From a virus, in the IMG/VR virus record IMGVR_UViG_3300037805_000525, positions 45,094-109,093 of that record: a DNA stretch of 64,000 nucleotides; one strand, given 5' to 3'. The number at the start of each line of letters is the position of its first letter. Positions within the stretch are counted from its first letter, which is position 1. Shown one piece after another: positions 903 through 58,757 of this stretch. The notes beneath the pieces were generated by a model. That model was given only the letters and a program-made list of their open reading frames with translations, searched no databases and had not been told where the DNA came from. A program made the translations under genes and the position numbers.

Positions 903-3378
903 CGTCGATCTCCGCGATGTAGTCAGACATGAGGGACGTGCCGAGCGAAGAACTCGCCGCAGGCTCGCTGCCGTATGTACGCATTGCTGCAGCGAGCAGT
1001 GCCTCTACGGAGTCAGTGTCTGTGAGCGACGTGGGCTCCGTCAACCCGAACACGGACCACTCGAGCGCCATGAGTTTGGTGTGTACCCAGCTCAGGTTGG
1101 CTTGGTGGAGTGCGTTGGACAGGTCAGCGAGCTCCTGGGGTGCGGCGGCACTGTAGCTGGACGACGCGCTGGCTATGCCGTCGAAGATGAGCATGAGCGT
1201 GCTGCGTACATACGCCCAGGCATCCGGAGACACGCCGTTGAGTGGATGCTGCAGACCAGGGGCGTAGCGTTGGTCTGCTAGTAGCTTGCGAACGGTACGC
1301 AGTGTGCCGCGTAGGTAGCTGGCGGTTACCGGTGTGGTCGTGGGGCCAGCACCATAGATTGCCGCGCCTGCTTCTGCGTAGGCTGCCAGGGTGACCACGC
1401 CGCCCATGGACGAGCGAACCTCCGCCCATCCGCCGAGGGGGCCGACTGCGTAGTCGCCGGCGCGGATACGGTAGCGAGGACCCGACGCAGTGTATGAGTA
1501 GCGGGGCTGGGTGGCGAACGCCTCGTCGGGCAGTCCGAACTCAGGCCCAGGTCCTCCCCCGGGAACAAGCTCAAAGAGTTGGTTGGAGTCGATGACAAGC
1601 TCTGTGGTCTCCAGGGCGAAGGTGATGTCTACGCTGCCGGCCACGCCCAGTACGTCCAGAGGTAGGACGATAGGGGTGAGCAGCGTGACCTGGGTGGGGT
1701 TGGCGGAGACGACCTGGTGGTACCCGTCGTATGGGGTAAGGACGTGCAGGAACGCAGCTTGTGTTCCGTCGGCTACGTCAATGAGGCTCGCACCGGCTGC
1801 GGTGATGGTGGCTGCGGCAGGCGGGCTACGGTACTGCGTGTTCTGCGTAGGGACGATGTCTAGCGCAGCCGGGTTGGTAATGGTGAGGTCGTTGAACCAT
1901 ACGTCAACGCCGTAGCCCTCTACAGGCACGGTGGTGAGTAGGTCATTGAGCGTGGTGGGTGGGGTGATCCAAGTGACGCCATCTACTGCAGTGCTGAGCA
2001 CGGGAGTGGTACTGCCCATGGGGATACCCATACGAGCTGCAGAGCCTGCGGTGTCGTAGGTGAACAGCAGATTGCCGCCGGTGGTGTGCACACAGTCTAC
2101 CGAAGCCGTAAAGTTCGAAATCTCGGTTGCGAGTTCGGACAGGTTGTACTTCACCGGAGGGGCAAATATCACAGTGTGATAAATCGAATTACCTGCTGCG
2201 ACGGTGACTGTGTAGAAGGGTGACTCGTCGGTTACGAGGTACTTGCGGTAGCTGAAGTGGAACTGCGTGCCGACGGGCAGTTCTTGATCGGTGCCTGGCA
2301 CAGTGAGGTCAGCGTAGGCAATAGTGACCTTGCCGGACGTGTAGTCGATGCCGCTAGAAATGTCGAGCGGCCAACCACTTACGCTGACTAGGTTGCCGGT
2401 TCCGTCGTCCGTTATGTGGTCGTTGGCTACGTGCAGCACCAGGGAGCCCGGTACGACATGTTCTCGCAGCGTTCGAACGTACGGACCCTTCCCGCCAGGT
2501 GCGTTTATCGAGTGGATCCCACTAAACGGGGCAGCCAGGTCCGCACCGTAGACAGAGGTAGTGGTAGCCATCGCCCGGATGGCTGCGGGGGAGGAGATGG
2601 TCACCGTATTTCCCGGCTCGCCCGAATACTGCAACTCTGCGGAGTCGGTACTCAGGCTGTGGAGCGGAAACGTGCTCCCTTCCATCTTGAAGGGGCCGAC
2701 CGCAACCAGGTCTGTGCCCTTTGGGGCGTCTAGGTCTATGTCGACCGCGCTCTCTTCGACAACAGAGGCGGACACAGCGGCTATTGCGGACAAATCCTTG
2801 GTTGCGGTGCCGTCCGGGCGCACGTTAGCTCGTACAGCGTCGTCTACGCTCTGTACAACACGTCTGCGCGTAGCAAAGGCGACGTCTGCCGCCTCCCAGG
2901 CTGTACGAGAGCGTGTAAGCGCGTTCAGTGCAGTCTCGAACTCTACTAGTGCAAGCTGGATCGAGCGCACAGCATTTATCACAATGTGATAATCCACCTC
3001 GCTGGACGCGGCGGTGGACGAGGCGGACAGTTCGTTGAGAGCGCGCACTGCGCCGCTGCTGCCCTGGTCAAGGTGCAGCAGCGCGTTGTCCGCGGCGTCC
3101 ACGCTCTCTGTTGTCAGGGTCTGCGTAGGCGCTCTGCGGGTGGATATGAGCGTAAGGAGGTGTTCCCGCGCTGTACTGGACTTGGCGGCGAGTGTACGAA
3201 GGTATGTGCCGTAGATGGCGTAGTACCCGCATTGGTCGTACTGGAGTGTGCGTGAGCAGAGGTCTAGTGCAACCTCCAGTATCTCCGCGGCTGTCTTGCC
3301 TCGCATCGTTCCGAGATCTACGCTCGGGGACAACCCCTGAGCTAGTCCCGCGATGTAGGCCTCAGAATATCGAGGCAT
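895..3378 (-). CDS. Putative virion structural (baseplate/tail-associated) protein
   Basis: 827 aa; helical N- and C-termini around a T/V/G/P-rich beta region containing a DDGTGNL...IDYTSGKVTI motif seen in tail/baseplate proteins. Confidence 0.55.
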   Translation of the reverse strand: MPRYSEAYIAGLAQGLSPSVDLGTMRGKTAAEILEVALDLCSRTLQYDQCGYYAIYGTYLRTLAAKSSTAREHLLTLISTRRAPTQTLTTESVDAADNALLHLDQGSSGAVRALNELSASSTAASSEVDYHIVINAVRSIQLALVEFETALNALTRSRTAWEAADVAFATRRRVVQSVDDAVRANVRPDGTATKDLSAIAAVSASVVEESAVDIDLDAPKGTDLVAVGPFKMEGSTFPLHSLSTDSAELQYSGEPGNTVTISSPAAIRAMATTTSVYGADLAAPFSGIHSINAPGGKGPYVRTLREHVVPGSLVLHVANDHITDDGTGNLVSVSGWPLDISSGIDYTSGKVTIAYADLTVPGTDQELPVGTQFHFSYRKYLVTDESPFYTVTVAAGNSIYHTVIFAPPVKYNLSELATEISNFTASVDCVHTTGGNLLFTYDTAGSAARMGIPMGSTTPVLSTAVDGVTWITPPTTLNDLLTTVPVEGYGVDVWFNDLTITNPAALDIVPTQNTQYRSPPAAATITAAGASLIDVADGTQAAFLHVLTPYDGYHQVVSANPTQVTLLTPIVLPLDVLGVAGSVDITFALETTELVIDSNQLFELVPGGGPGPEFGLPDEAFATQPRYSYTASGPRYRIRAGDYAVGPLGGWAEVRSSMGGVVTLAAYAEAGAAIYGAGPTTTPVTASYLRGTLRTVRKLLADQRYAPGLQHPLNGVSPDAWAYVRSTLMLIFDGIASASSSYSAAAPQELADLSNALHQANLSWVHTKLMALEWSVFGLTEPTSLTDTDSVEALLAAAMRTYGSEPAASSSLGTSLMSDYIAEIDDA
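2167..2181. promoter_or_regulatory. Palindromic site 1, TATCACAGTGTGATA (intragenic)
   Basis: Perfect 7-1-7 palindrome, one of 13 copies. Confidence 0.85.
2977..2991. promoter_or_regulatory. Palindromic site 2, TATCACAATGTGATA (intragenic)
   Basis: Perfect arms with central A. Confidence 0.8.
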
Positions 3379-3776
3379 TAGTCACAGCTTTCGGGGTTGG
3401 TTCCGCGCAGTCGGCGGATGCCTTGTGCGTCAGCAGTACGGGCCAGCTTACGGACCGTGTGCGGGGAAATGTTGAATGCACCGCATACCGACTCGAACGA
3501 GTAGATGTACGTGGCTGTCTTGAAGTCCGTGATCAGGTCAAATATCCACGACGCAGCATCAGCGCCTAGCTCACGCTTCTGCGCGTCTGGGCTGGACCGG
3601 TACAGTACATAGTCAGAGACGCCACGACGTAGGACAGCCAACATGAGCTGTGCCGCCCCGGAATCAGCACCCTGATGCGCACGATCCAGTTTGAGGCACT
3701 CACACGTCTGTGGGTCGCAGAGGCCGAGCTGCTTGAGCGTGCACTCGTAGTTTGGATTGTGCTTATTCCTGCTCAC
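3378..3776 (-). CDS. Small Cys-rich protein with C-terminal HTH-like segment
   Basis: N-terminal C-x7-C-x4-C-x-C; C-terminal AVL..GV.DY...AASWIF...SFESVC.AFNISP..VR pattern of a conserved HTH-like hypothetical family. Confidence 0.6.
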   Translation of the reverse strand: MSRNKHNPNYECTLKQLGLCDPQTCECLKLDRAHQGADSGAAQLMLAVLRRGVSDYVLYRSSPDAQKRELGADAASWIFDLITDFKTATYIYSFESVCGAFNISPHTVRKLARTADAQGIRRLRGTNPESCD

Positions 3777-4690
3777 GCGACGGTGACCTCAATCGCGCCA
3801 ACGAGCGCGCTCACCAGGTCTCCACCGAACCCAAACCCTTCGGGCAGCTCGACGGGGATTAGCGTAGGGGTGTAGGTGACCACGCCAGCGGCGAGGCCCG
3901 TGAACTCTACGGCCGTGCCTTCAAGAGCCAGGTCAGCCACGTCGGGCACATCCTCGCTCAAGTACACGCGCGAGTCGGTCAACAAGACACCGCTGGTGAG
4001 CAGTATCTTGTAGGTGAGCTCCTTGACCTCGGCTACAGCCAGCGCAAGGGCGGGTGCGGCTCGTGAGAGTTCCGCTGCGCCGTCGAACCAGACAATCCCC
4101 GCAACAACCGGGAAGATGATGGACATCAGGTCGGCAGACGGAGCGTCTGGTACGTGTATGTACCAGCTGCCTAGCTGCGTGCCCAAGGCTACGCTGTACG
4201 TGCGCCCACGCAGTAGCGAGACGGACATGCGCCCATCTTTGTCTGCCACGACATCCACCGGCGCTCGGTTGAGTCCGAGGAGGACACTGGATACGTCGCG
4301 AACAGAGTCCCCGCAGTGGATGGTGATTCGCGCGGTGAGATCACCAGACGGCGAGCCGTCCAGGTCCTCGAAGTACCCAGTGCATAGGCACCGTCCGGGG
4401 TCGGCCGACTGCGGTAGGGTGGGCGACGCCACCAACACTGTAAACAGCACGGGGGCCGCTTGATCGGGCACCACGGCGGAGAACGTGTTGCCGGCGTGTG
4501 CGGTGAGCGGTTGCGGCCCGTGTACCCGCATGGAGTATGTTCCTGCGGGCTGGTCTCCGAGGAAGACGCGCCCCGCTACGTCGGTGTACCCACTGCCTAC
4601 GAGCGCAAGCCCGGCGTCGTACATCGCGACGAACACATCCGCGCGGACATCGGCAGGGGTTGAGACCGCTTCAGCGAATACTTGTGGCAC
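3773..4690 (-). CDS. Putative virion protein with Ig/prealbumin-like beta domains
   Basis: 305 aa, acidic and beta-rich; TD..G...L..Q..GTY and DKDGRMSVSL motifs; resembles 7011..8195. Confidence 0.55.
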   Translation of the reverse strand: MPQVFAEAVSTPADVRADVFVAMYDAGLALVGSGYTDVAGRVFLGDQPAGTYSMRVHGPQPLTAHAGNTFSAVVPDQAAPVLFTVLVASPTLPQSADPGRCLCTGYFEDLDGSPSGDLTARITIHCGDSVRDVSSVLLGLNRAPVDVVADKDGRMSVSLLRGRTYSVALGTQLGSWYIHVPDAPSADLMSIIFPVVAGIVWFDGAAELSRAAPALALAVAEVKELTYKILLTSGVLLTDSRVYLSEDVPDVADLALEGTAVEFTGLAAGVVTYTPTLIPVELPEGFGFGGDLVSALVGAIEVTVA

Positions 4691-4693
4691 TGC

Positions 4694-5323
4694 TCAACTC
4701 CAGGCTTTGGGCATGAACGTGGTTTCGGGGTAAGTGTAGCCCCATTCTTCTGGATACAAGCTGCCTTCTTTTGAGACACACCACGCAACAAGCTGCGCGC
4801 TCGTCACCACGCCGCCACTGCTGTTGAGCATCAGGACACGCTGGAGTAGTTCGGTGAACGTGTGCTCCCCGTAGCGATCCCCCCAGTTACCCGTGGCCCT
4901 GAACATCGTCTCGACGCCCAAGTACACACATATGGCGTGTCCGTGCAGCTTCCCGTCAGCGCCGATGTAGTTCAGCGACACAACACGGGCAAGCCGATCC
5001 GAAGGCAGTACGGCGGCGGCCCAGGATGCGAAGTCGTCGCAGTCCATTGCCATGCGCGGTGGCTGCGGTTTCCCTTCGGCGATGAGGTCCAACACGTACT
5101 GTGTGCGGCACGGGTGGCCGACGGCGTCCCACAACTCGCGCCAGCCGTCAGACCTGTACGTGAGTTTGTCCATCTCTGTGACCACGCGTGCCGGAGGCAG
5201 CTCACGTGGAAGATGCGCGCTCCACGGGCCGAACAGGCGGTAGAGGTTGGACCAGGCGGCTCGGATGTATCGGTGCGTGCTGTAAGCAGCTCGCCAGACC
5301 CACGTTCGGTAAATATTCATCAC
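4694..5323 (-). CDS. Transglutaminase-like (papain-fold) cysteine protease
   Basis: DCDDFA catalytic-Cys motif, downstream GHAICV His motif, then a polar residue in TGNW. Confidence 0.7.
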   Translation of the reverse strand: MMNIYRTWVWRAAYSTHRYIRAAWSNLYRLFGPWSAHLPRELPPARVVTEMDKLTYRSDGWRELWDAVGHPCRTQYVLDLIAEGKPQPPRMAMDCDDFASWAAAVLPSDRLARVVSLNYIGADGKLHGHAICVYLGVETMFRATGNWGDRYGEHTFTELLQRVLMLNSSGGVVTSAQLVAWCVSKEGSLYPEEWGYTYPETTFMPKAWS

Positions 5324-8490: not shown

Positions 8491-8517
8491 CAAGTGCGTG
8501 GCGTTTGGGGGTATAAG
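8491..8517 (+). promoter_or_regulatory. Promoter-like motif CAAG-N15-GGTATAAG
   Basis: One of six aligned motifs upstream of plus-strand genes. Confidence 0.6.
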
Positions 8518-8545: not shown

Positions 8546-8560
8546 TATCACAGTGTGATA
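8546..8560. promoter_or_regulatory. Palindromic site 3, between the promoter motif and gene 8581
   Basis: Perfect TATCACAGTGTGATA, extended by GCGGA...TCCGC. Confidence 0.85.
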
Positions 8561-8890: not shown

Positions 8891-10234
8891 TCAGCTCGTG
8901 AGTAGGTAGCCGCCGCCAGCGACCCCTGCGGCCGGAAGGAGCCGCAGCATCTCGTTCTTGACGCGTTCTGCACGGATGCGGGCGGACAGCGCGGTGATTC
9001 CACGCGCTGTCCCAAGACCTGCCACAGAGCCCGCCAGCGCGCCAGGGACGGCCTTGCGTGCGAGCAGCGACCCGGCAACTGCGCCGAGCATCGGTAGGGA
9101 CCGCAGAGCTGACGCGGACTTGACGTTGGCGCCAAGCAACTCACGTAGCTTGCGCACAGCAGCGCGTGCAGCCGCCGGCGGGTCCATACGTGTCTCTACT
9201 GATCGCACAGGATTCAGAAGGTCATGCAGGTTACGGTTTGGCCGCACTCGGCCAAGGAGATCAAGGCGCCCACCCGCGGGGGCTCGCAGCTGGCTCCGCA
9301 CCAGGCGCGACAGCTCACCGGGTACCGCAATCGCGCGCTGCAGGATTTCTCGGGCACCCGCGGTCTTCTCGTGAGACACCTTGGTGACCGGGGACCCTGC
9401 GCGCCACAACGCTTGGTTGAACGCATCGTGGAACGGCGGATCGAACTTCCTACCTGCCGCGACCCGGTCGTAGCGTGCCTGTGCGGCTGCGACGTCGGCG
9501 GGCATTCCGCGTGCCTGCGCGGCTGCGCGTCGGTGCGTGGGGCTTGCTGCCCGGCGCGCACCCGCCATTGCCGGACGCATACGCATACGCAACCAGCTAA
9601 GCAGCCCAGGTACGGATTTCACGCCCCGGCCTGCCATCCGCGCACTACCTAGTAGGCCACGGCCTGCCAGCCGCGCCCCGCCCACTGCGCCCTTACCAAG
9701 AAGCCGAGCGCCGGCAACTGAACCAATGAGCGCGGCGCGGCTGGCTGGGTGGTTCATGGCCCTTGTGAGGCCATGGCCTAGGTCCCAAGCCATGTTGCTG
9801 CGCAGGTTGGAGAAGATCTTGCCGAACGGGATAGCCGCCTCTTTAACAGGGAGCTGATCCGCGGCGAGGTGTGCCGCGACAACGGCGTCTTCAGGTGTTT
9901 CGCCGGGGCGGCCTATTACGCTCCGTGTCTTGTCGCCGAGCATGTCGGCTAGTTCGTCACGGTTGTGGTACGCCAACAAGCCGGCGCCAGCGGCGGCCAG
10001 AGGCAGGTACGGGAACGACCGACGTGGCCGTACCGTGTGGCCAAGCAGCGCGGCCGCGGCAACAGGTGTCAGCGCACCGACTGCCGCGATTCCCGCATCG
10101 CGCGCAAACGTGGTTTGCGCGCTGGACCTCTTCTCGCGAAGCTCGGCCATGACGCGGCTACGCACGCCGCGGCGCTCAGCGTGCGTAGCCGCACTGACGT
10201 GTATGGTAAGTCTTGGTGAGTCCATTATGCTCAT
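8891..10234 (-). CDS. Basic, Gly-zipper-rich putative internal head polyprotein
   Basis: 447 aa; modules separated by EKRSS, KEAA, EKTAG and KSAS motifs, several with GxxxG hydrophobic stretches. Confidence 0.55.
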   Translation of the reverse strand: MSIMDSPRLTIHVSAATHAERRGVRSRVMAELREKRSSAQTTFARDAGIAAVGALTPVAAAALLGHTVRPRRSFPYLPLAAAGAGLLAYHNRDELADMLGDKTRSVIGRPGETPEDAVVAAHLAADQLPVKEAAIPFGKIFSNLRSNMAWDLGHGLTRAMNHPASRAALIGSVAGARLLGKGAVGGARLAGRGLLGSARMAGRGVKSVPGLLSWLRMRMRPAMAGARRAASPTHRRAAAQARGMPADVAAAQARYDRVAAGRKFDPPFHDAFNQALWRAGSPVTKVSHEKTAGAREILQRAIAVPGELSRLVRSQLRAPAGGRLDLLGRVRPNRNLHDLLNPVRSVETRMDPPAAARAAVRKLRELLGANVKSASALRSLPMLGAVAGSLLARKAVPGALAGSVAGLGTARGITALSARIRAERVKNEMLRLLPAAGVAGGGYLLTS

Positions 10235-11130
10235 GGTGCCTCGTCCAGGTATCCGCGCAATCTCTTCGCGAGGTCCTTTTTTATACGTGATACTCGGTAG
10301 CTTTCGATGCCGAGCTTTTCTGCGATCTCGCCGGTGCCCAGCATGGGGGCCCCGAGCCCTACAACGTGTCGGTAGACCTTCTCGTCTTCCCCGTCCAACT
10401 CGTACACGAACATGCGCATGACCTCAGTCTCGCGCTCCGTGGTCATTGTGGTGGGGTCAACCTCAAAGTTCTGACTTACCAGGTCCCCACGTAGCTCAGT
10501 GTCCATCCGGGCGACTTCGGCCTCGGACCAGTCCAGGTGGTCCGCGAGCTCCGCGTCTGTCGGTGTGCGCTTGTGCTGCTCGGACAGTTCCGCGTGAGCG
10601 ACGGAGTATCCCTGAATCTTGTAAACACGGTTCTCTGGGATGCGCGCCACATTCTGGTGCGCGGCCACGTAGCGCTTCACCTTGTGTAGATGGTTCGCAA
10701 TGTGGGTGTTGAGCTGTGTTCCACGTTCCGGGTCGTACGTGCGCAGTGCCTTGACCGTACTTAACTTGTACTGCGCCATCAGTGCCTTGTCCGGGATCAT
10801 CCGTACGCGGCCCATGTGAATCTTGGCACGTGATTTGATGAACGGGGTCAGGCTCTTCATCAGCGGGGCGAGCTTCTCAGGATCTTCGCCAGAGTCCTTC
10901 CACGCCTGCCACATCGCCATCTCAGACTCACGTCGAGACAGCTTCATGGCGTCGGCAGCACGCTCTTTGACGCCATCACGCGTGTAGCGGGTGACGATGG
11001 TGAGCGCGCCGTCGCGCTTCTTGCGCAGGTGGGCCTTGACGTCGATGCGTCCGGCGGGTCCGGCGGGTGCGCGCTTCTTCTCGGCGAGCTTCAGAAACTC
11101 CCCGATATGATCTTCACTCGAGGTCGTCAT
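10231..11130 (-). CDS. RNA polymerase sigma70-family factor (FliA/SigB/SigF-like) with N-terminal extension
   Basis: Region 2 (ALRTYDPERGTQLNTH), region 3 (RTPTDAELADHLDWSEAEV) and region 4 HTH (TGEIAEKLGIESYRVSRI). Confidence 0.9.
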   Translation of the reverse strand: MTTSSEDHIGEFLKLAEKKRAPAGPAGRIDVKAHLRKKRDGALTIVTRYTRDGVKERAADAMKLSRRESEMAMWQAWKDSGEDPEKLAPLMKSLTPFIKSRAKIHMGRVRMIPDKALMAQYKLSTVKALRTYDPERGTQLNTHIANHLHKVKRYVAAHQNVARIPENRVYKIQGYSVAHAELSEQHKRTPTDAELADHLDWSEAEVARMDTELRGDLVSQNFEVDPTTMTTERETEVMRMFVYELDGEDEKVYRHVVGLGAPMLGTGEIAEKLGIESYRVSRIKKDLAKRLRGYLDEAP

Positions 11131-13059: not shown

Positions 13060-13065
13060 TATCAA

Positions 13066-13080
13066 TATCACAGTGTGATA
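13066..13080. promoter_or_regulatory. Palindromic site 4
   Basis: Perfect TATCACAGTGTGATA, 6 bp from the 38-bp palindrome. Confidence 0.85.
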
Positions 13081-16982: not shown

Positions 16983-16997
16983 TATCACAGTGTGATA
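16983..16997. promoter_or_regulatory. Palindromic site 5
   Basis: Perfect TATCACAGTGTGATA, intergenic. Confidence 0.85.
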
Positions 16998-21668: not shown

Positions 21669-21683
21669 TATCACAGCGTGATA
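21669..21683. promoter_or_regulatory. Palindromic site 6, TATCACAGCGTGATA
   Basis: One-mismatch variant between convergent genes. Confidence 0.8.
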
Positions 21684-26206: not shown

Positions 26207-26221
26207 TATCACAGCGTGATA
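26207..26221. promoter_or_regulatory. Palindromic site 7, TATCACAGCGTGATA
   Basis: One-mismatch variant, intergenic. Confidence 0.8.
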
Positions 26222-28472: not shown

Positions 28473-29044
28473 TGCGAGCTCCTCGCGGGCATGATCACGT
28501 CAGTGAGTAGGGCGTCGGACACAACGTAGCTAGCACCCTGCGGGCTGCCGTCCGCGCTGAACTCCTCGTTGAAGGTCTGCCACACGTGGGCGGAGAACGC
28601 ACTTAGCGCGCGGGCAACACTGCCGCTCGTAGTCGCCCTGAATGACCATACATAGCCTAGGGTGCTCTTTCGCGGCTTCCGGTGCTCAGTCCTATATAAA
28701 CGCGCCTGTATGTCGAGGTCGTACATTCGACCGGCATCGCTGCGGAGCAGCCCCGCAGCCAGGTGTAGGTGCGATACGACGTCTCGTGCACGCACAAGAA
28801 CTTCGAACTCACCTGCCCCGTGCGCGGCGGAGATCACCTTGTAGAGGGTGAGCGGGTCCGAGTACGCCTGATCGGGGTAGCAGATCTTGAGGCTCTGTAG
28901 CGCTTGTGTGAGCGTGAGCAGCGCTGCCTCAGGTATTGCGTCCATCGGGGAGGGCACCTCCAGCGGCTGCGCCGGGAGCGTGCGTGCGGCCTCAGTTGGT
29001 CGGCTCCCGGACCGGAGGCGTAACGTTGGTCGTGACTTACCCAC
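28469..29044 (-). CDS. Hypothetical protein
   Basis: 191 aa, operon-coupled. Confidence 0.65.
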   Translation of the reverse strand: MGKSRPTLRLRSGSRPTEAARTLPAQPLEVPSPMDAIPEAALLTLTQALQSLKICYPDQAYSDPLTLYKVISAAHGAGEFEVLVRARDVVSHLHLAAGLLRSDAGRMYDLDIQARLYRTEHRKPRKSTLGYVWSFRATTSGSVARALSAFSAHVWQTFNEEFSADGSPQGASYVVSDALLTDVIMPARSSQ

Positions 29045-29669
29045 TGAACGCGTCCTGCACTTCGAGTCGTAGTGCCGCGTGGATACCCTCTGTCCGCAGA
29101 GTAGGCAGCCTGCTCAAAAACACCACGGGTGCCCCTGCAGCGACCTCTGAGCCCTCGTACACATACGTGGGGGCACCGAGCAGCGTGGCGGTCCCGTCGG
29201 GGCATCCGATGCGTACAGCGCGCATATAGACCTCCCGCTCCGCATTGCTGGAGAATACCGTGCGGACGATGCTGACGCGATTAGTCAGCACGTACTCTGC
29301 GATGTAGCGCAGTGCCTCACGAGGAGCGCGCACCTGGATGGCGTGCACCTCCTTAGCTCGATCAAGTGCGGCCACATACTCTGCTGTACTTGGCGCAGGG
29401 TCAGTGAACGACGCGGGGTGCTCTGCTCGACGATCTTCGGGCTCGGATACGTCGAGCACGATGGCGGCGGTCACCTTGCAGATCGGCCCGAACAGTAGGA
29501 TGTTTATCGCAGACGCACCTTCGTTGAGGAACCGCACGACGGCAGGGAGTACCGCAGTCGGGCTTCGCGCGACCTCGAGCTCGTACATACGGGTTTCACC
29601 GCCCGCAGTGTCTGTGTCTGCGACGTCGGACAACTGCATGTCCGGATCGATCTTCTTTGTATCAGTCAC
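29037..29669 (-). CDS. Hypothetical protein
   Basis: 210 aa; GAGGAG SD. Confidence 0.7.
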   Translation of the reverse strand: MTDTKKIDPDMQLSDVADTDTAGGETRMYELEVARSPTAVLPAVVRFLNEGASAINILLFGPICKVTAAIVLDVSEPEDRRAEHPASFTDPAPSTAEYVAALDRAKEVHAIQVRAPREALRYIAEYVLTNRVSIVRTVFSSNAEREVYMRAVRIGCPDGTATLLGAPTYVYEGSEVAAGAPVVFLSRLPTLRTEGIHAALRLEVQDAFSG

Positions 29670-29679
29670 CGTCTACTCC

Positions 29680-30399
29680 TCATGCCGTGATGTTGTTTAC
29701 GAACCCGTCGCTCATGTGCCCCACGTCGTCGTCGGGTATCTGCGCGAATCCGAAGGAGGCTACCGCCGAGGCGCGGAAGGCGCGGACACAGCGTCGGACG
29801 ACGGCAACCTGACTCTCGCCGCTGGCTAGCGCGTACGACTTCAGGAAATCGCGTGTGTCGGCTGCGAGCCTGAACTGCGTCATGACGAGCTTGTCTGCGC
29901 GAACGCTGACCTTCTGAATTAGCAAGCTGTTCACCATCGCCTTTCCGCGAACGTTGTCTGTGTCTGCAGACCACCGCCGGCCGCCTGCGAACAGTACCAC
30001 CCGTGGCCGGGAATACTGGTCTTTGTGTTTGCCTATCTGCGCGGCACGAAGAACCGCTTTACGTGAGCGGTAGGTACGCTTCTTGGATAGGTCCAGGTAC
30101 ACGGCAACGCTCTTTAGCAGGAGGCGGTGGGAGGCGGCCCAATAAGCACGAGCAGGGCCACGCCGCGCATTACGAACGATGTGCGCGTGTAGCGTGGTCA
30201 CCTCTTGGCAAAACCTGCAGAACGCGTAACCACCGTCCGCGCCGTTCCCGTGCGGAAATAGGCATTGTGGGCAGTACCACAGCGCGGAGAACAGGTGGCT
30301 CACCGGCCAGACGCGTAGACCGACAAAAGGGGCCCCTGCGCGAAGTGGTCCGCCGTCTCCGCGTGTTTGGTGTGCAAGTGGGTAGTTACGTGCGACCAC
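29680..30399 (-). CDS. Zn-ribbon plus C-terminal ribbon-helix-helix-like DNA-binding protein
   Basis: CPQC...CRFC; C-terminal VMTQFRL-AADTRDFLKSYALASGES-QVAVVRRCVRAF fits an RHH strand-helix-helix pattern. Confidence 0.55.
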   Translation of the reverse strand: MVARNYPLAHQTRGDGGPLRAGAPFVGLRVWPVSHLFSALWYCPQCLFPHGNGADGGYAFCRFCQEVTTLHAHIVRNARRGPARAYWAASHRLLLKSVAVYLDLSKKRTYRSRKAVLRAAQIGKHKDQYSRPRVVLFAGGRRWSADTDNVRGKAMVNSLLIQKVSVRADKLVMTQFRLAADTRDFLKSYALASGESQVAVVRRCVRAFRASAVASFGFAQIPDDDVGHMSDGFVNNITA

Positions 30400-30402: not shown

Positions 30403-30762
30403 CTAGCTCTTTCGGCGCTTCTTACGTGAACTGCCTCGGAGGACGATTGGTCCTTGAGCAAACACGTCGTTCAGGAACTTCTCGGCGTCGGCAACCTTCT
30501 TCTTCTCGAAGTCTCCGGACCCAGGAATGTAGTCCTCTCGAAGTACGGCACGGATACTGTTCACGTACTCTGTCGAGGATTCCGAGGTCACTAGGTTGCT
30601 TATCACGCTGTGATATTCGGTGCGCTGCTTCCGGTTAAAGATGTGAATCCAAATCAACTCAGCCAGCGAATCCCTCGCTGGGACTGGCAGCGCACCTGAC
30701 CGAATCAGCTCGTAGTAGAGGCAACCACGCGCCCACCCGATTGGATCACTTAGCTCATTTTT
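30403..30762 (-). CDS. Tail assembly chaperone C-terminal (gpT-like) segment, probably reached by -1 frameshift
   Basis: No good independent start; open in the -1 frame across GTA AAA ATG at the end of 30750..31529. Confidence 0.6.
   Translation of the reverse strand, partial: KNELSDPIGWARGCLYYELIRSGALPVPARDSLAELIWIHIFNRKQRTEYHSVISNLVTSESSTEYVNSIRAVLREDYIPGSGDFEKKKVADAEKFLNDVFAQGPIVLRGSSRKKRRKS
30601..30615. promoter_or_regulatory. Palindromic site 8, TATCACGCTGTGATA (intragenic)
   Basis: Reverse complement of the site 6/7 variant. Confidence 0.8.
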
Positions 30763-34188: not shown

Positions 34189-34215
34189 CGGAAATATCAC
34201 ACTGTGATATTTCCG
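34189..34215. promoter_or_regulatory. Palindromic site 9, extended 27-bp form, abutting the parB promoter
   Basis: CGGAAATATCACACTGTGATATTTCCG, 13-1-13 perfect inverted repeat. Confidence 0.9.
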
Positions 34216-34242
34216 CAGTTTCACGAAAATAGCTGGTATAAG
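34216..34242 (+). promoter_or_regulatory. Promoter-like motif CAGT-N15-GGTATAAG
   Basis: Upstream of parB. Confidence 0.65.
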
Positions 34243-34292: not shown

Positions 34293-35543
34293 ATGTCCGA
34301 CGTTGAAATGACGACCGAAGAAGAAGCCGCCACCGAAATCACCGAGCTTGAGATCCCGCCCGAAGAAGAGCTGCTGCTCGTTGAGCACGGCACCGAGTGG
34401 ATCGCGCTGGGCGACATCGACACCGAAACCTTCGTGAACCCGCGCGGTGACGTGGGTGATTTGACCGAACTCAAGCAGTCCCTCCTTGCCTCTGGCGTGC
34501 TCGTCCCGCTGAGCGTGGTGATCATCAGCCCAACCGGCATCCTCGACGAGGACAACCAGGCGGAAGCCGTACTGCTGCTCGACGGTCAGCGCCGCCTCGC
34601 TGCGATGCGGGAGCTCCACGACGGCATCAACGAGCACAACGAGCGGGTTGCCCGCGATGGCGGCTTCGACGACCTCGACAGCACGTACCTGTTCGTGGTT
34701 GACGACGGCAAGGGCAACATGGTGCCCAACCCCGACGTGATCCCGCAGGCGTTCTCGGAGCAGTCCTGCAGCGTGAGCATCGCGCGCGCCTGGAGCGAGG
34801 AGCTCCAGAGCGAGATGCTCGTGCGCGCAGCGCTCATCAACGAGAAGCGTGAGTCGATGACCGACTACGACCGCTACTGCTACGTGTGCCGCCTGTCCGA
34901 GCTGGGCATGCGCCAGGTCGACATCGGCAAGAAGCTCACTCGCGCACAGGCGTGGGTGTCCGGCGCGGTCAGCGTCAAGAAGAACGGCTCCAGCGTGCTG
35001 ATCACCGCGATCAAGGAGGGCAAGGTCTCGCTCCGTCGTGGCTTCGAGATCGCCAAGCACAACAAGCGCGAGCAGGCTGCGCTCGTCGCAGGCAAGGCGC
35101 CGGCGAAGAAGTCGACCTTCCGCTCAAGCCGTGAGATCTACGCCGACGTCGTGGCGATGAGCAACCCCGAGGCCTACGTCGATGTTGACGAGGCGCATCG
35201 CCAGATGATGATTCGTACGTTCCGCTACATCATGGGCGATGCGGGCGTGACGCTCGAGCAGCTGATGTACCCGCCCGAGCCCGAGAACGATGTGGCCACG
35301 TCCACGAAGTCCCTGCTCGACCTGATCCCCGAGGCACGTCGTCGGGCGCCCAAGGCGAAGGTCACGCCCAAGAAGCCCGCAACGAAGAAGGCGCCGAAGA
35401 AGGCCGCGCCGAAGAAGGCCGCACCGAAGAAGGACGCACCGAAGAAGGTCGCCCCCAAGGCGAAGGCCCCCGCCAGCACTGCCAAGCCCGCGCGCCCTCG
35501 CCGGGCCGCGCGCCCTCGCCGGACCAAGCCCGCCGCTGAGTAA
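34293..35543 (+). CDS. parB: ParB/KorB-family CTPase with HTH and histone-H1-like Lys/Ala/Pro tail
   Basis: NPR...ELKQSL...GVLVPL.V and LLDGQRRLAA ParB motifs; NEKRESM; HTH MRQVDIGKKLTRAQAWVS; PKKAA repeats. Confidence 0.85.
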   Translation: MSDVEMTTEEEAATEITELEIPPEEELLLVEHGTEWIALGDIDTETFVNPRGDVGDLTELKQSLLASGVLVPLSVVIISPTGILDEDNQAEAVLLLDGQRRLAAMRELHDGINEHNERVARDGGFDDLDSTYLFVVDDGKGNMVPNPDVIPQAFSEQSCSVSIARAWSEELQSEMLVRAALINEKRESMTDYDRYCYVCRLSELGMRQVDIGKKLTRAQAWVSGAVSVKKNGSSVLITAIKEGKVSLRRGFEIAKHNKREQAALVAGKAPAKKSTFRSSREIYADVVAMSNPEAYVDVDEAHRQMMIRTFRYIMGDAGVTLEQLMYPPEPENDVATSTKSLLDLIPEARRRAPKAKVTPKKPATKKAPKKAAPKKAAPKKDAPKKVAPKAKAPASTAKPARPRRAARPRRTKPAAE

Positions 35544-39424: not shown

Positions 39425-39439
39425 TATCACACTGTGATA
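39425..39439. promoter_or_regulatory. Palindromic site 10 (extends to AATTATCACACTGTGATAATT)
   Basis: Perfect palindrome upstream of the lysis-like genes. Confidence 0.85.
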
Positions 39440-47591: not shown

Positions 47592-48472
47592 GTGGACCCC
47601 CTACGCGTGAATGCCGCGGCCAGCGTGTCCGTGTAGTTTGTTGTGCCCAGATCCTGCGGGGAAGTCATGGCACGCACAGGCGTCCCAAACCAGTCGTCCG
47701 CGTCCACGTTGATAGGCACCTTGTACTCGATGTTACTTGTGTCCAACTGGACCACGGTAACCTCCTGGCGAACAACGAACCTGCCGAGCGCCGGGCGGTT
47801 TTGGTTGCCACCTACGAGCCAACGCTTGTTCTCCGCCTCGACCACCAGGTCCCCGTCCCGAAGTAGCGGGAAGTGCCCGAACTTCATCATCGACTGCCGG
47901 ATGGGGATTTTACCTTCAGGCTGTGTCAGCGAAACGGCGCGTGGTTCTTCAATCTGTGCGTAGACGACGACTGGGCGGTAGAACCCCAGCGCGTATCCGG
48001 TGTTGAAGCAGGATACGCAGTTCGACTTCGTACGCTTCATACGTAGCGTGTTGAAGCACTCCATGCATCGGGCACCGGAATGTCTGCGCTGGAACAGCAG
48101 GACCCGCCGCCCCTTGTACTCCCGCAGCACGACCTGCTCGGTGCGCGCGATCTCCAACGCGGGTAGTGTCGCTTCGGCCTCCAGCGAGGCCCCATTATCA
48201 CAGTGTGATAATTCGCTGAGCCCGTTCCCTCGGATCTCAATCCGGTAGAAGTAGTCGCGGTGCGTGCCGTAGCGCCCCACGCTTGTGTCGAGGAAGGTGT
48301 TCATGGAGCTCTGCAGCGGCCCGGCGATTTCGACGTAATCACTGTGCGGGTTCCGCGAGCGGAGCACATAGAACTGGAAGTCGTCGACACCGGGGTTGTA
48401 GTCGCGCAGCTCCCAACTTATGTGTAGCGACCGAACAGACATCGATCGCACGAGTACCTTTGAGAACTCCAT
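47588..48472 (-). CDS. Putative neck/head-closure protein with Fn3-like N-terminus and Zn finger
   Basis: LHISW...FYVLRS...YFYRI; CMEC...CVSCFNTG; PLLRDGDLVVE. Confidence 0.65.
   Translation of the reverse strand: MEFSKVLVRSMSVRSLHISWELRDYNPGVDDFQFYVLRSRNPHSDYVEIAGPLQSSMNTFLDTSVGRYGTHRDYFYRIEIRGNGLSELSHCDNGASLEAEATLPALEIARTEQVVLREYKGRRVLLFQRRHSGARCMECFNTLRMKRTKSNCVSCFNTGYALGFYRPVVVYAQIEEPRAVSLTQPEGKIPIRQSMMKFGHFPLLRDGDLVVEAENKRWLVGGNQNRPALGRFVVRQEVTVVQLDTSNIEYKVPINVDADDWFGTPVRAMTSPQDLGTTNYTDTLAAAFTRRGST
48196..48210. promoter_or_regulatory. Palindromic site 11 (intragenic)
   Basis: Perfect ATTATCACAGTGTGATAAT inside the neck gene. Confidence 0.85.
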
Positions 48473-52575: not shown

Positions 52576-52616
52576 GATTTGGTCCTCTTGAGTCAGTTAC
52601 GCAGCGGCTGAGAAGT

Positions 52617-53472: not shown

Positions 53473-53539
53473 CTCGTTGCTTGCCTTCTGTAATCAAGTC
53501 TATGCGTGCGCGCGTACAGAGCAAAGCGAAACCGCGCAT

Positions 53540-53580
53540 AAAAAAAGAGCCGCGCACCCTGTGTAGGTACCCGGCTCTTT
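53540..53580 (-). terminator. Intrinsic terminator
   Basis: AAAGAGCCG...CGGCTCTTT stem with A-run on the plus strand. Confidence 0.7.
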
Positions 53581-53601
53581 CTACCCGCAGCCGAGAAGCG
53601 G

Positions 53602-54297: not shown

Positions 54298-54319
54298 GGT
54301 TCGGGCTCCTCAATCAAAT

Positions 54320-54334
54320 TATCACAGTGTGATA
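54320..54334. promoter_or_regulatory. Palindromic site 12
   Basis: Perfect TATCACAGTGTGATA upstream of the scaffold gene. Confidence 0.85.
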
Positions 54335-54380
54335 CTGGCACCTCCAACTCTACCGAGTCTCGGGCGGCCCTCCAAGCGCA

Positions 54381-55955
54381 CTATACAAGGTGCGGCAACT
54401 TTTTGTTAATCAGCTTAGCCAACTCGACCATTCCCGTGGCTGCCGTGGCAGCAAGGATTGGGTGAGACTCTACAAGGTTCTCCACCGTACCCTTTTGCTG
54501 CGGGGCCTTGCGGGACGTATACGCCGAGTACAGGTACGCGAGCGGGAGTGCGATCGCGAAGTTCTTACTCGCGGCACCAGCGAGCTTCTCGAGGTCTGCC
54601 GAGCCGTCGTCATCTAGCGCGTCCGCAGGTAAGAAGCACTCACTGTAGTTGAGCAGGTCCTCTCTGTACGCGTCGTACGCGGCACCGATCTTGAGCATGC
54701 GCGGCGACGGGGGGCCCTGCGAGATTGTGATGTGTACGCTAACCGGCGGAGGCCCCGAACGAAGAGACCGGCCGGCAAACATACGAAGCAGCGCCCCCTG
54801 CAGCGACGCACCGCCTATCGCGCTGCCGTGGTCGGCGCGTAGTCCGCGCGTAACGCCTCGGTCCTCGGCGGGCAACCTGAAGCGTACGGCACTAGCAATG
54901 GGGCGTCCGGACGGGACAACCTGATCGCCTCGGAAGATGCCGCGCGCACGTGATGCCTGCCCCAGGGAGTGCATCAGCCCCGCGCCAAACTCTTGTGGGG
55001 ACAGCACGGCGCCCATACCTGTCAGGCTGCGTAGCACGGTGCCGAAGTTCCGACCCCGCGGGAACATCCCACGAAGCGACTCCTCTGGGATGCCTTTACG
55101 GCACGACTCCAGCGCAGGACCCAACTTGGAGGCCATAGCCGGGATACGCTTTACGAGTTCGGCCGTCTTGTCGTCCGCGACCTTCTCAGGTTGTGCATCC
55201 AGGAAGGTCTCTTCGGCGGATAGTGCGGGAAGCTCAGACGCGGCAGATGCAATCTTGAGCATCGTGTACCCAACCGCATCCGCGTTAACAACGACGAAAC
55301 TGATGTCGAAGAACACTGGGCGCGGGTTGTTGACGCACACCTGCTGCCCATCGTCCAGTATGCGATTCCGGCGCTGCTTCATGTGACTGCAGTAGTCGAA
55401 CGCCGTACGTGCTTTGTTCCCACACCCACGAATTCGGCAAACGTCGAACGGCACACGACAGCCCATGCTTACGGGGACCGCGACGCCGCGGTCTAGCCGT
55501 TCGTACAGATCGCCATGGCCGAACTCGATGCAACGCTTCTGGTCGACGCAGAGGATGAGCTCCACGCGGCGCATCAGCTGGTTGTACACCGCGTACACGA
55601 CGGAGCCGAACGACTTGGTGCGGTCCTTATTCCGGTGGTTGCGAAACACCCCCGCGGTGAGGAACGTACGGTGCCCCCAACGCGTAGTGCCGTCCACAGG
55701 ATTCAGCTGACTCTCCTGGAAGAAGTCGGCGTTGACGTTCGGGCCGTAGTAGTCGCCCGCGCCGAGGGCGTTGACCAGGACGTACAGGCAGTTTGGTTTC
55801 GGCGCGAGCGAGTCCACGAACGAACGAACACGCGGATCGTTTGTACTCGCCTTAAACGCCAGTTTTGTTCGGCCCTCGACAGACGAACCCGCCACAACGC
55901 GCATCGTGGCTTCGCCGTGCGGTGTCTCCTCTGGCAGGGCTGTGTACTTGTACAT
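54381..55955 (-). CDS. Prohead maturation serine protease with Zn-finger insertion
   Basis: N.N.D.F, FRNH (His), VSMGC (Ser), C...C...C.H and FFDISFV..AD motifs of herpes/HK97-fold prohead proteases. Confidence 0.8.
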   Translation of the reverse strand: MYKYTALPEETPHGEATMRVVAGSSVEGRTKLAFKASTNDPRVRSFVDSLAPKPNCLYVLVNALGAGDYYGPNVNADFFQESQLNPVDGTTRWGHRTFLTAGVFRNHRNKDRTKSFGSVVYAVYNQLMRRVELILCVDQKRCIEFGHGDLYERLDRGVAVPVSMGCRVPFDVCRIRGCGNKARTAFDYCSHMKQRRNRILDDGQQVCVNNPRPVFFDISFVVVNADAVGYTMLKIASAASELPALSAEETFLDAQPEKVADDKTAELVKRIPAMASKLGPALESCRKGIPEESLRGMFPRGRNFGTVLRSLTGMGAVLSPQEFGAGLMHSLGQASRARGIFRGDQVVPSGRPIASAVRFRLPAEDRGVTRGLRADHGSAIGGASLQGALLRMFAGRSLRSGPPPVSVHITISQGPPSPRMLKIGAAYDAYREDLLNYSECFLPADALDDDGSADLEKLAGAASKNFAIALPLAYLYSAYTSRKAPQQKGTVENLVESHPILAATAATGMVELAKLINKKLPHLV

Positions 55956-55959
55956 GCGG

Positions 55960-56658
55960 TTACCCCGCGAACCGTGTCGCGTCTTCGAAGGCGCGGACCA
56001 TAGGTGTGCTGCTGCCCGACGCCGAAAGGCTTCGGCTGGTGTCCGCGAGAGTCTTCAGGTCGCCTGGCTGGATGCCCTCATCTTTGTACATGAGGTACTT
56101 CTTCGCCCAGGAGCGTGCCACGAGAGGATCGCTCGCAGAGCGCGGGCTGAACTTCTGCAACGTCCGCATGGCCCGGCGCACGTCAGTCTTGTTTTCGGCC
56201 GCCATGTCCGGGAACTCGGCATACATATTGTTGATGTTCTTCTCAAGCGCCGCAGGACCACGCCGCTTCTTGTCGTAGTAGCGCTCAGCCGCCTCAGAAC
56301 CGGCCGCGAGCCCTGCGGCGGCGCCGCCGAACACAAGCGCCTTCGGCAACATACCGCCGCGACCGAACACCTGCCTGGCGAGGGAGGGGCGCGTAAACTT
56401 AGCGATCAGCCCTTTCCCGCCCTCTGACGCAACGCTCTTGGCAAACGTGGAGCCGATGTCCTTGCCGAGCGATCCGAGGAACCCGGGCTTCGGCTCAACC
56501 AGCCCAGCGGCGCGCTCGGCGATCAGAGTGAGGCGCTTCTTGTTTGCCGCGGCGGTGGCCTCTGCGATCGCGTCGGACGCTGTGCCCGCGATCTTCGTGC
56601 CCGTGCCGTGTGCGGCTTCGCGGAGGCTATCTAGGAAGTCTGTGTGCTGCATTACCAC
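55960..56658 (-). CDS. Putative head protein with TKIAG leader and Gly-rich hydrophobic segment
   Basis: 232 aa; P..ASDPLVA.SW motif; head operon. Confidence 0.6.
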   Translation of the reverse strand: MVMQHTDFLDSLREAAHGTGTKIAGTASDAIAEATAAANKKRLTLIAERAAGLVEPKPGFLGSLGKDIGSTFAKSVASEGGKGLIAKFTRPSLARQVFGRGGMLPKALVFGGAAAGLAAGSEAAERYYDKKRRGPAALEKNINNMYAEFPDMAAENKTDVRRAMRTLQKFSPRSASDPLVARSWAKKYLMYKDEGIQPGDLKTLADTSRSLSASGSSTPMVRAFEDATRFAG

Positions 56659-57239
56659 TTGCTCCGTGCAAAGGGGTTAACCGACGGCGCTTCGCCTGCA
56701 CCAAAGCGTGCTGCGACGTAGGGGTCGGTTTCGATTCGTGGGCGCATATCTGCGGTGGCTGCACCGCCGTACGCGCGAGCGCGTGGGTTGGTCAGCAACT
56801 GGTGGCCAACGAGCAGCCCGCCTGCCGCAATAAACGGGTGCCGCTTCGCCATGCCTAGCGCACCGCCGTGCTCGTACTTCTTCTTGAAGTACATGTCTCG
56901 GCCGCCGATACGGGCCTTGTACGCCTTACCCGCGAGCTCGCCTGACTGTAGCTTGGCAAACTCCGCGCGCGTGATGGCCTCAACATTCCCGCCGTGGCGG
57001 CCGCGCGGAACTGCGGAGAGCCTGCGCCCACGCATCGGACCAAACCTGGCTTTCGACCCGAGTATGGAGGCCAGTATGGCGTCCTTGGTGACGTTGATCG
57101 GAACACGCGATGCGCGACCGACCATGCGTGCTGGCATGTCTGACGCGGCATTGAGCGCGCGCTCGATCCCCTCCGGAATTCTCCGAGACATGATCTTGTC
57201 CCGGATGGACTTCCCCAGCAGGTATGCAGGCGGCTTCAT
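56652..57239 (-). CDS. Basic putative head protein
   Basis: 195 aa, Arg-rich; HPFIAAGGLLVG; AGGAG SD. Confidence 0.6.
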   Translation of the reverse strand: MKPPAYLLGKSIRDKIMSRRIPEGIERALNAASDMPARMVGRASRVPINVTKDAILASILGSKARFGPMRGRRLSAVPRGRHGGNVEAITRAEFAKLQSGELAGKAYKARIGGRDMYFKKKYEHGGALGMAKRHPFIAAGGLLVGHQLLTNPRARAYGGAATADMRPRIETDPYVAARFGAGEAPSVNPFARSKW

Positions 57240-57253
57240 CTAGTACTCCTGCG

Positions 57254-58645
57254 CTACTGCGCGGTCTGCTGGGGATTTGCCGGTACGGCGTTGTCCGCGG
57301 TCGGCTGCTGGCCCAGGCCTGCCCCGTTCGACGCGGCGGGGCCCTGAGGCGCCCCTTGTGGCGCCATGCCGGGAGGGGCCATGCCGGGCGGAGGCCCCAT
57401 GCCCTGCGGAGGCATACCGGGAGGCACCATGCCGGGCGGTAGTGCGGTAGGCATGTCCAGGCCAGGAGGGGGTGCTGAAAACAGGCCTGCCGCGCCCGTG
57501 AGCTGCTCGTCGCTGCCGGTGAGGTATCCCAGCAGGTTCGAGTTCGTACCGACCGCCTGGTTGATGAGCATCTGCACCTCTGTAAGGCGCCCAACAATCC
57601 CGTTCAGGTCTTGCACGAGTCCTGGGACGGGCATGCCCATACCGGGGGCCATACCGGGAGGGGCCATACCGGGAGGGGCCATGTTCGGATCCATGCCGGG
57701 AGGGGCCATGTTCGGATCCATGCCGGGAGGGGCCATGTTCGGATCCATGCCGGGAGGCGGCATTCCTGCCTGTGGAGGGGGCGGTGCCATCGCGCCAGGC
57801 ATACCCTGTCCGACGTTCGGCGTGGAGGTCATCCCGGGGCCCACGACGACGTTCGGTGCGCGAGGCGGGGACTCGCTGAACATCTCGCTCGGGTCCACGC
57901 CAGCTTGCGCCATCGTGTCGTTAGACCGGCTACCGCGCCGCGCAAGTTTACACACGCCAGACAAGCGCGAGTCGATGAGCGCGCGTAGGCCGTGCGACGG
58001 GTTACCTGCGAGGACGAGATCGCCAACGCTCTCTGGGGGCAACCCCTGATCCTCGTGGAGCTGCTGCGCGGCGTGCTTCAGCATCCCAAACTTGCGGTTG
58101 AAGTCGGAGGTGTACTGCGCACGCAGGACGCGCGCTTCGCTGACACCATGGCTGATCTTTTCGAACAACGCGGACCGCTCGTAATCCGTGAGCGGTTCCG
58201 CCGATGCGGTCTTCTCCACCGCGTCGTCGGACAGCCAGGCGCGCACAGAGTTAACTGCGGCGGACTTCTCGAGGCGCGCTGCCGCGGTCTTGATCGCAGC
58301 TGGGCTCGGCGTCTTTGGTGCAGCCACGGGCACAGCCTTCAATTTCTCAGTGACTGAGGCCACCGCGACCTTTGGGTTAACGACGGGAAACGACACGTTC
58401 CCGGTTGCGTCGGGCATCCGCAGCGCGAGGAAGGTCTGGACGTTTGCGGCCTCCGCCAGCCGGGTTGTTTGGTCCCGGTTGAAGCCCTGATCGCGTGCGA
58501 TCTTGACGACAGACTCGAGCAGCGGGGTCTGGTTTGTCCTGAAGGCGTTTGCGGCCTGCTTGGCGAAGTCAGCGATCTCGCGCTCGGAGAACGCGCGCTG
58601 GCCCGACCCGACAAGGCTACGTAGTGATGTGTTTAGGGACTCCAC
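57254..58645 (-). CDS. Head-associated protein with many KxA motifs and a Pro/Gly/Met low-complexity C-terminus
   Basis: AGGAG-N7-GTG start at 58645; KQAA, KIAR, KTAA, EKSAA, EKTAS, KHAA, KLAR. Confidence 0.7.
   Translation of the reverse strand: MESLNTSLRSLVGSGQRAFSEREIADFAKQAANAFRTNQTPLLESVVKIARDQGFNRDQTTRLAEAANVQTFLALRMPDATGNVSFPVVNPKVAVASVTEKLKAVPVAAPKTPSPAAIKTAAARLEKSAAVNSVRAWLSDDAVEKTASAEPLTDYERSALFEKISHGVSEARVLRAQYTSDFNRKFGMLKHAAQQLHEDQGLPPESVGDLVLAGNPSHGLRALIDSRLSGVCKLARRGSRSNDTMAQAGVDPSEMFSESPPRAPNVVVGPGMTSTPNVGQGMPGAMAPPPPQAGMPPPGMDPNMAPPGMDPNMAPPGMDPNMAPPGMAPPGMAPGMGMPVPGLVQDLNGIVGRLTEVQMLINQAVGTNSNLLGYLTGSDEQLTGAAGLFSAPPPGLDMPTALPPGMVPPGMPPQGMGPPPGMAPPGMAPQGAPQGPAASNGAGLGQQPTADNAVPANPQQTAQ
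57669..57757. repeat. Exact 27-bp tandem repeat x3.3 encoding MDPNMAPPG
   Basis: Unit CCGGGAGGGGCCATGTTCGGATCCATG. Confidence 0.95.
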
Positions 58646-58742
58646 GAACAAACTCCTGTGCGCAATCTCTATCAGAGAATAGTACCGCAAATGCGTGTGC
58701 TGGGAGAGTGGGTGCTCTCTGTGGGGGCGCCCCTGCCGAAAT

Positions 58743-58757
58743 TATCACACTGTGATA
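58743..58757. promoter_or_regulatory. Palindromic site 13 (extends to AATTATCACACTGTGATAATT)
   Basis: Perfect palindrome between terL and the next head gene. Confidence 0.85.

Follow-up and report, generated by a model that had tools for sequence, protein, structure and literature searches.

The stretch of DNA analysed here, the window, is 64,000 nt long and corresponds to bases 45,094–109,093 of the 109,093-bp virus contig IMGVR_UViG_3300037805_000525 (62.5% G+C). Along it, at operon boundaries and inside genes, lie copies of an odd-length palindrome, TATCACANTGTGATA, and the longest of these stands ahead of the gene for a 416-aa ParB-like protein (34293..35543). The proposal developed below, the most likely of those considered, is that the palindromes are specific binding and loading sites of this orphan ParB/KorB-like protein of the phage, in the manner of KorB and its OB sites on plasmid RK2, a proposal for and against which we judge the balance to be about even.

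A search of the window for TATCACANTGTGATA, allowing at most one mismatch, returned 13 matches, exactly the set that an earlier note on this DNA had pointed out (Table 1); the chance expectation is 0, and each of the 100 dinucleotide-preserving shuffles that served as control contained none. As that note had also claimed, 10 of the 13 are perfect and three share one mismatch, which gives a centre triplet of GCT or AGC according to strand, and because these three have one identical change, on either strand, the invariant core is TATCAC-N3-GTGATA. Neither of the heptamer arms, TATCACA and TGTGATA, occurs outside the palindrome. Conservation runs on symmetrically beyond the arms, R-A-T preceding the left one and A-T-Y following the right one (R being purine, Y pyrimidine and N any base), out to ±10 bp of the centre, giving a 21-bp dyad with the array consensus RATTATCAC-RYT-GTGATAATY. 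The longest copy is the perfect 27-bp palindrome CGGAAA-TATCACACTGTGATA-TTTCCG, and its assignment to the ParB promoter is borne out by its position 84 bp upstream of the ParB start codon.

The array continues beyond the window. The whole-genome scan that the earlier note had called for found 24 copies in the complete 109,093-bp contig and 33 in the 159,633 bp obtained by joining it to an overlapping IMG/VR contig, IMGVR_UViG_3300037805_000715 (G001, 50.6 kb), which was found via the motif itself. The end of the first contig (window 63894–64000) overlaps G001 (L006:10-116) by 107 identical bases, and since this overlap falls in a repeat, one that recurs at window 62237–62372, the join is presumptive. 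G001 resembles the contig in G+C content and in having a promoter-like motif, considered below, on the plus strand only, and its gene content (RNA polymerase, DNA polymerase, helicase, primase) is complementary. CheckV puts completeness at 61% for the contig and 27% for G001, and the two are presumptively one phage of about 180 kb, with some 160 kb of it in the joined sequence. A short metagenome contig extends the joined end by ~2.5 kb and adds a 34th copy. Lone hexamer half-sites, TATCAC or GTGATA, number 15 outside the palindromes of the joined genome, with ~38 expected from base composition. An 18-mer scan of IMG/VR and metagenomes returned only near-identical pieces of the same phage and unrelated single matches. 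The phage, an uncultured marine one, is present, almost clonal, in seawater metagenomes of several studies, and contigs from four seawater runs differ so little from the window that they provide no population variation for testing constraint.

Spacing and genomic context of the copies

The near-periodic spacing that had been noticed in the window holds for the joined genome. The coefficient of variation (CV) of the gaps between the 33 copies is 0.40, against ~0.97 under random placement, and equally even spacing arose in none of 20,000 simulations (P<5e-5); when intergenic copies alone are compared with randomly chosen intergenic regions, their spacing is still unusual (P=0.002). By context, 24 of the 33 are intergenic, in the region immediately ahead of one or more gene starts, 20–194 bp away, and the other nine comprise six inside open reading frames (ORFs) and three between convergent genes, the classes being derived from crude, codon-usage gene calls and drawn up after the data were seen.

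All but one of these nine fall within seven of the eight largest gaps (8.0–14.9 kb) between promoter-proximal copies, at relative positions 0.49, 0.54, 0.51, 0.55, 0.59, 0.36 and 0.48. The summed deviation from the gap midpoint has P=1.6e-5, in a test that leaves out the ninth copy, 155019, located past the last promoter-proximal copy. In the window, 2167 and 2977 flank the midpoint of an 11.7-kb gap, and the pair claimed to lie between convergent genes, 13066 and 21669, do so. The gap-filling effect is large despite the post hoc classes and crude gene calls, and because the copies concerned sit near the midpoints of the largest gaps the spacing itself appears to be selected: copies seem to have been added where, with operon boundaries only, a stretch of over ~8 kb would lack a site.

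Selection acts on the DNA, since intragenic copies are read in different frames. Across the joined genome the coding-sequence reading is YH[T/I/S]VI in five copies and LSHCDN in one, the third frame across the palindrome being closed by a TGA stop. The four window copies that had been placed in coding sequences all overlap ORFs, three read as YH[T/I/S]VI and one as LSHCDN; the ORF at 30601 (84 aa) is itself doubtful.

Table 1. Palindromes, promoter-like motif and ParB-like gene, in window coordinates
Feature	Position	Strand	Context
Palindrome	2167..2181		Inside minus-strand 803-aa gene; YHTVI; centre AGT
Palindrome	2977..2991		Inside the 803-aa gene that also holds 2167; YHIVI; centre AAT
Palindrome	8546..8560		Divergent regulatory region; 36 bp 3' of GGTATAAG motif; plus-strand ATG 20 nt on
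Palindrome	13066..13080		Between convergent genes; beside bidirectional terminator-like hairpin; position 0.54 of 8.4-kb gap
Palindrome	16983..16997		78 bp upstream of minus-strand 1216-aa gene
Palindrome	21669..21683		Centre AGC; between convergent genes; position 0.51 of 9.2-kb gap
Palindrome	26207..26221		Centre AGC; minus-strand operon ATG 26 nt away
Palindrome	30601..30615		Centre GCT; doubtful 84-aa ORF; position 0.55 of 8.0-kb gap; polarity against local transcription
Palindrome	34195..34209		Core of 27-bp palindrome 34189-34215; 40 bp 5' of GGTATAAG, 84 bp 5' of ParB ATG
GGTATAAG promoter-like motif, ParB gene	34235..34242	+	One of 31 copies, all plus strand
Orphan ParB/KorB/Noc-like protein, 416 aa	34293..35543	+	N-domain, helix-turn-helix, basic tail
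Palindrome	39425..39439		Between terminator-like hairpin and plus-strand ATG (30 nt); GGYATAAG motif absent here
Palindrome	48196..48210		Inside minus-strand 294-aa gene (LSHCDN); divides 14.9-kb gap spanning sheath gene
Palindrome	54320..54334		Head-gene operon ATG 22 nt away
Palindrome	58743..58757		Between large terminase gene and next minus-strand operon (start 97 bp off); polarity against transcription

The ParB-like protein and its relatives

A Pfam search of the ParB-like protein gave no match, PF02195 included (E<0.01), and its PHROG ParB match is weak (7e-8, residues 48–109). Its identity emerges from family profiles and structure. DGQRRLAA at residues 97–104 constitutes a GxxRxxA arginine patch, with G98 and R101 invariant in 10 homologues, and an ENxxR-type box, INEKR in this protein (N183 and R186 invariant), is followed by a helix-turn-helix (HTH) motif. 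Positions 160–249 of the family profile align with residues 97–185 of Thermus Spo0J (E 5e-17), and the profile also matches Noc (7e-15) and ParB structures. The AlphaFold2 model, whose predicted local distance difference test score is 74 for the full chain and exceeds 85 across most of residues 30–270, has as its best Foldseek matches RK2 KorB (8qa9, the top one), Noc and ParB-CDP, each with probability 1.00. The product, which the earlier note had called a ParB, is thus a genuine member of the ParB/KorB/Noc fold, N-terminal domain and HTH included.

Two further features are a family-specific insertion of ~70 residues and a basic tail rich in K, A and P. An exhaustive HMMER search yielded 32 homologues, of which the nine aligned (P0002–P0009 and P0011) share the architecture, tail included. 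The contigs from the four seawater runs show, at window 35390–35455 within the lysine-rich tail, joints that go back 52–58 together with small insertions, which suggests either variation in the number of PKKAA repeats or cross-mapping of similar tails from other organisms. The codon score of the gene ranks seventh of 147, among head proteins, and with this capsid-like bias ParB is predicted to be abundant.

As regards a partition system of the ParABS kind, Pfam sweeps of 137+24 proteins (172 of the 173 gene calls covered overall, ~12% of the genome unseen) contained none of the ParA-type families CbiA, AAA_31 and ParA, the ATPase adjoining the ParB gene is a classical AAA+ protein, and the sites, with no cognate ParA found, are dispersed instead of clustered. 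Beyond ParB, these 161 proteins include as recognisable DNA binders only a sigma-70-family factor and an HTH_58 protein of 443 aa.

Relatives were sought widely. A tblastn search of 50,697 phage records gave nothing for P0001 and only generic Gordonia ParB-like matches for P0006; IMG/VR scans with P0001, P0002 and P0003 gave no relatives, a scan of Joint Genome Institute metagenomes for ParB relatives found none, and a word-indexed protein search with ParB returned the query alone. An alignment scan added only a distant one, the unrelated, AT-rich phage IMGVR_UViG_3300041402_000691 (G003; L013-L015; 39.6% GC), in which parB lies at 28508–29716 and encodes a homologue of the phage ParB (hhalign 95%, E 1.8e-8). 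This genome has 35 copies of GATTT-N3-AAATC, against 0.13 expected, with a 3-bp spacer only, and six of them cluster within 1.3 kb around the start of parB.

Promoters, polarity and candidate readers of the dyad

The promoter-like motif GGYATAAG has 31 copies on the plus strand of the joined genome, ahead of a ribosome-binding site and ATG, and none on the minus strand, with ~3 per strand expected from composition; examples in the window are at 8510, 12030, 18967, 26286, 31940 and 34235. Seventeen palindromes lie 29–84 bp upstream of it or, in two cases, 36 bp downstream, and others are separated from any promoter motif by distances of hundreds of bp to over 3 kb. Minus-strand operons, which carry the structural genes and RNA polymerase, have TAnnnT-like elements instead of GGYATAAG, which points to two promoter classes divided by strand, and 13 of the ~18 minus-strand operons start 22–142 bp from a palindrome. 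The geometry of palindrome and promoter element varies: overlapping, upstream or inside the leader. Helical phasing of the palindrome-promoter distances was weak, at a period of 11.0 only (p ~0.03), and absent at 10.5, and is not counted as evidence. Terminators, searched for with a crude detector, lie no more than 90 bp from 15 of the 33 copies, where random intergenic placement would give 11 (P=0.10). Of the genome-organising lattice originally envisaged, the array, the selection at the DNA level and the even spacing have stood, but since about three-quarters of the copies (24 of 33) are in operon-start regions, the array resembles the operator set of the global regulator KorB more than a purely architectural lattice.

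The transcription apparatus is partly encoded by the phage itself. Its sigma-70-family factor (window 10231–11130, minus strand; Sigma70_r3 5e-8; phrog_351 RNA polymerase sigma factor 4e-10) is located among tail-region genes. A 2470-aa RNA polymerase of the multisubunit type, in which a single chain contains both Rpb2 and Rpb1 domains (fused beta-beta'), is encoded on the minus strand of G001 (L007:1048-8460; joined 130025–137437). The latter carries, near residue 1030, a LAGLIDADG-like insert, possibly an intein or homing endonuclease. On the plus strand of the same contig a gene for a D12-class N6-adenine DNA methyltransferase (L007:16258-17217; joined 145235–146194) ends 16 bp before the palindrome at 146210.

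Though the arms are symmetric the site has polarity, the centre triplet being RYT on one strand, and in the six copies with a change flanking the centre base (GCT in five, GTT in one) the change is always 5' of the pyrimidine. Along the contig the polarity runs 10 plus, 8 minus, 3 plus and 2 minus; it has no link with GC skew (the third-position skew is merely -0.04) and agrees with local transcription in 17 of the 21 unambiguous contexts. Each half, taken in the sense direction, is TGTGATAAT, an extended -10-like element that almost every copy carries on at least one strand; nine copies have no gene to serve. It is conceivable, then, that two extended -10 promoters, set back to back (ATTATCACA / N / TGTGATAAT), make up each palindrome and are used by the phage sigma factor with the fused RNA polymerase, or by host RNA polymerase, the array then marking transcription starts, internal and antisense ones among them. 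The conserved 19 bp can be resolved into two TGnGATAAT elements and one free centre base, the sigma factor has the region 3 that reads a TG element, 24 of the 33 copies are at operon starts, at 39425 there is no other promoter motif between terminator and ATG, and, besides the agreement with transcription, the TG of the sense half is intact in every centre-flank variant. Against this, plus-strand units already have GGYATAAG and minus-strand units their TAnnnT-like elements; three copies are between convergent genes and six in genes, two of these antisense; promoters would not be expected to sit at the midpoints of long gaps; R/Y conservation at ±10 falls outside a -10 element; copies 20–26 nt from an ATG leave almost no leader; and near-invariance across 15 bp is unusual for promoters of the sigma-70 type. 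We consider this interpretation unlikely. Less probable still is that the element acts as structure, whether as an RNA hairpin (a 6–8 bp stem with an RYU triloop, for processing or stabilisation) or as an extruded DNA hairpin or nick site. A stem of this length with a 3-nt loop is geometrically possible and the asymmetric RYT centre is mostly co-oriented with transcription, but such a stem would be A/U-rich and weak, in a genome of 62% GC; four copies are oriented antisense to the transcription around them, three are flanked by convergent genes, and many are upstream of a promoter-like motif and hence probably untranscribed.

A protein that binds the dyad must also be weighed if it is not ParB: the array could consist of the sites of a different sequence-specific protein, such as an unrecognised dimeric regulator of the phage, the 443-aa multi-HTH protein or a host factor, ParB having its role elsewhere, which we think somewhat improbable. 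Pfam families account for only ~10% of the phage's proteins, and ParB is tied to the sites only by one nearby copy and by family analogy. The 443-aa protein (P0036, L009:9240-10571, plus strand, early region) matches HTH_58 at 8e-7 and by eye has five tandem HTH-like repeats of ~35 aa, but a tandem-HTH monomer suits direct repeats better than a 21-bp dyad. The codon score of its gene is low and the gene call uncertain. A host regulon is not visible: a search of one genome per prokaryote species (185,579) with the 15-mer found at least 120 loci, among which the matches listed are all single-copy with no taxon prominent. ParB, on the other hand, is the sole recognised dimeric HTH protein, is predicted to be abundant and has the best site at its promoter.

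What commends ParB itself as the reader of the palindromes? The longest dyad, of 27 bp, is at its own promoter. A dyad with symmetric conservation to ±10 bp suits a dimer, the half-site ATTATCAC has an inner TCAC in common with the parS consensus TGTTTCAC (PMC7383237), and G003, with its homologous ParB and N3-spaced palindromes, supports the proposal as an independent parallel. The links from protein to site are, however, all circumstantial, and several observations weigh against ParB. Chief among them are the polarity and the one-sided variants, which a symmetric dimer leaves unexplained. The 3-bp spacer differs from parS and from the Noc-binding site (NBS), so the likeness of the half-site to parS may be chance. 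In G003 the site spacing is random-like, with a CV of 1.06. With ~90% of the proteins having no family assignment, an unrecognised binder is quite possible. Finally, the catalytic Glu of GERRxR, which is required for CTP hydrolysis and not for binding (PMC11790492), is absent, being Gln99 here (GQRR) and Phe, Gly, Leu, His or Asn in homologues, and in the ENxxR-type box the phage protein and the two homologues nearest to it have Ile in place of Glu; with both replaced a standard CTPase and clamp cycle is doubtful, though this does not speak against the fold.

On the proposal that the palindromes are ParB loading sites, the HTH domains of a ParB dimer would read the dyad, and with nucleotide the dimer may close as a clamp and spread or slide 1–2 kb. 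An interval of ~4.5 kb between sites would keep the whole chromosome, and every promoter, in reach. At operon starts the bound protein could repress or assist transcription, while the extra sites in genes and between convergent genes would fill the long gaps, so that all DNA would be within ~2–4 kb of a site. The basic tail of ParB and its predicted abundance would fit a DNA-coating or condensing protein, and the effects might be on transcription, on genome organisation or on both. The binding of the sites by ParB, the spreading and the consequence are what we infer; the dyads, their placement and the fold of the protein are observed.

Known systems and biological meaning

The nearest known system is that of KorB, the top structural match of the phage protein and likewise a member of the ParB family in which a nucleotide-binding fold at the N terminus is combined with an HTH. 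KorB slides up to 1.5 kb, and its OB sites are 4–10 bp or 45 to more than 1000 bp from promoters (PMC11790492). As there, one palindrome is dispersed over the replicon at a density of one in ~5 kb, a single dyad being found in promoter-proximal, promoter-distal and promoter-remote positions, and one site is at the regulator's own operon. The setting differs, RK2 being a plasmid and this a large phage of marine origin that encodes an RNA polymerase of its own and in which the Pfam sweeps recognised neither an integrase nor an IncC/ParA or KorA-like protein (small proteins being mostly unassignable). So do the site, with its 3-bp centre and different sequence; the protein, without the GERRxR Glu and with the family-specific insertion and a histone-like tail; and the spacing, which in the phage appears selected, with intragenic copies at gap midpoints.

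Noc, for its part, binds many sites scattered over a chromosome. The DNA-binding domain of the phage protein is homologous to those of ParB and Noc, as the Spo0J and Noc matches attest, and its half-site has TCAC in common with parS (PMC7383237, PMC8429893). Both parS and NBS are, unlike the phage dyad, spacerless palindromes of even length (16 bp), and parS clusters near the origin; the recognition helix reads A-Q-A-W-V-S in the phage protein against K-S-R-S-x-V in ParB and Noc, and the latter serve segregation or division control together with ParA, SMC or the membrane, where the phage has no ParA that was found. An orphan ParB-like CTP clamp of a mobile element, BisD of ICEclc, acts on transcription at a distance and, according to the abstract (PMC12409273), activates a few promoters of the integrative element, with no genome-wide even array reported there.

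Among phages, too, arrays of short sites are known. The stoperators of Cluster A mycobacteriophages are asymmetric 13-mers, oriented with transcription and bound by the immunity repressor of the temperate phage (gp71 in L5); they and the 17-bp dyad repeats of Cluster O occur in dozens of copies, mostly in short intergenic gaps, with some in genes. Unlike stoperators the present site is a dyad and evenly spaced, and no repressor or integrase was recognised in this phage. Orphan ParB-like proteins are common in phages, their functions having been left open (PMC12704722), and in a limited search of the open-access literature no account of ParB-type arrays at even spacing in lytic phages came up.

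A wider notion may be put forward tentatively, one that we hold to be possible and somewhat less probable than ParB binding itself, namely that large lytic phages cover their chromosome with an orphan ParB-family clamp loaded from evenly spaced sites, as a phage 'chromatin' or self-marking. Promoters would then be within range of a mobile co-factor for the phage RNA polymerase, as T4 late promoters are of the sliding clamp, or the genome might be condensed, shielded or told from host DNA, with a subfamily of ParB proteins having a Q-x-W helix reading N3-spaced dyads. Should ParB load at these sites, a large phage equipped with an RNA polymerase of its own would be using a ParB/KorB-type system, for genome-wide control or organisation instead of plasmid partition. 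The copies at gap midpoints would then be a read-out, within the genome itself, of the range of its action, ~2–2.5 kb each way.

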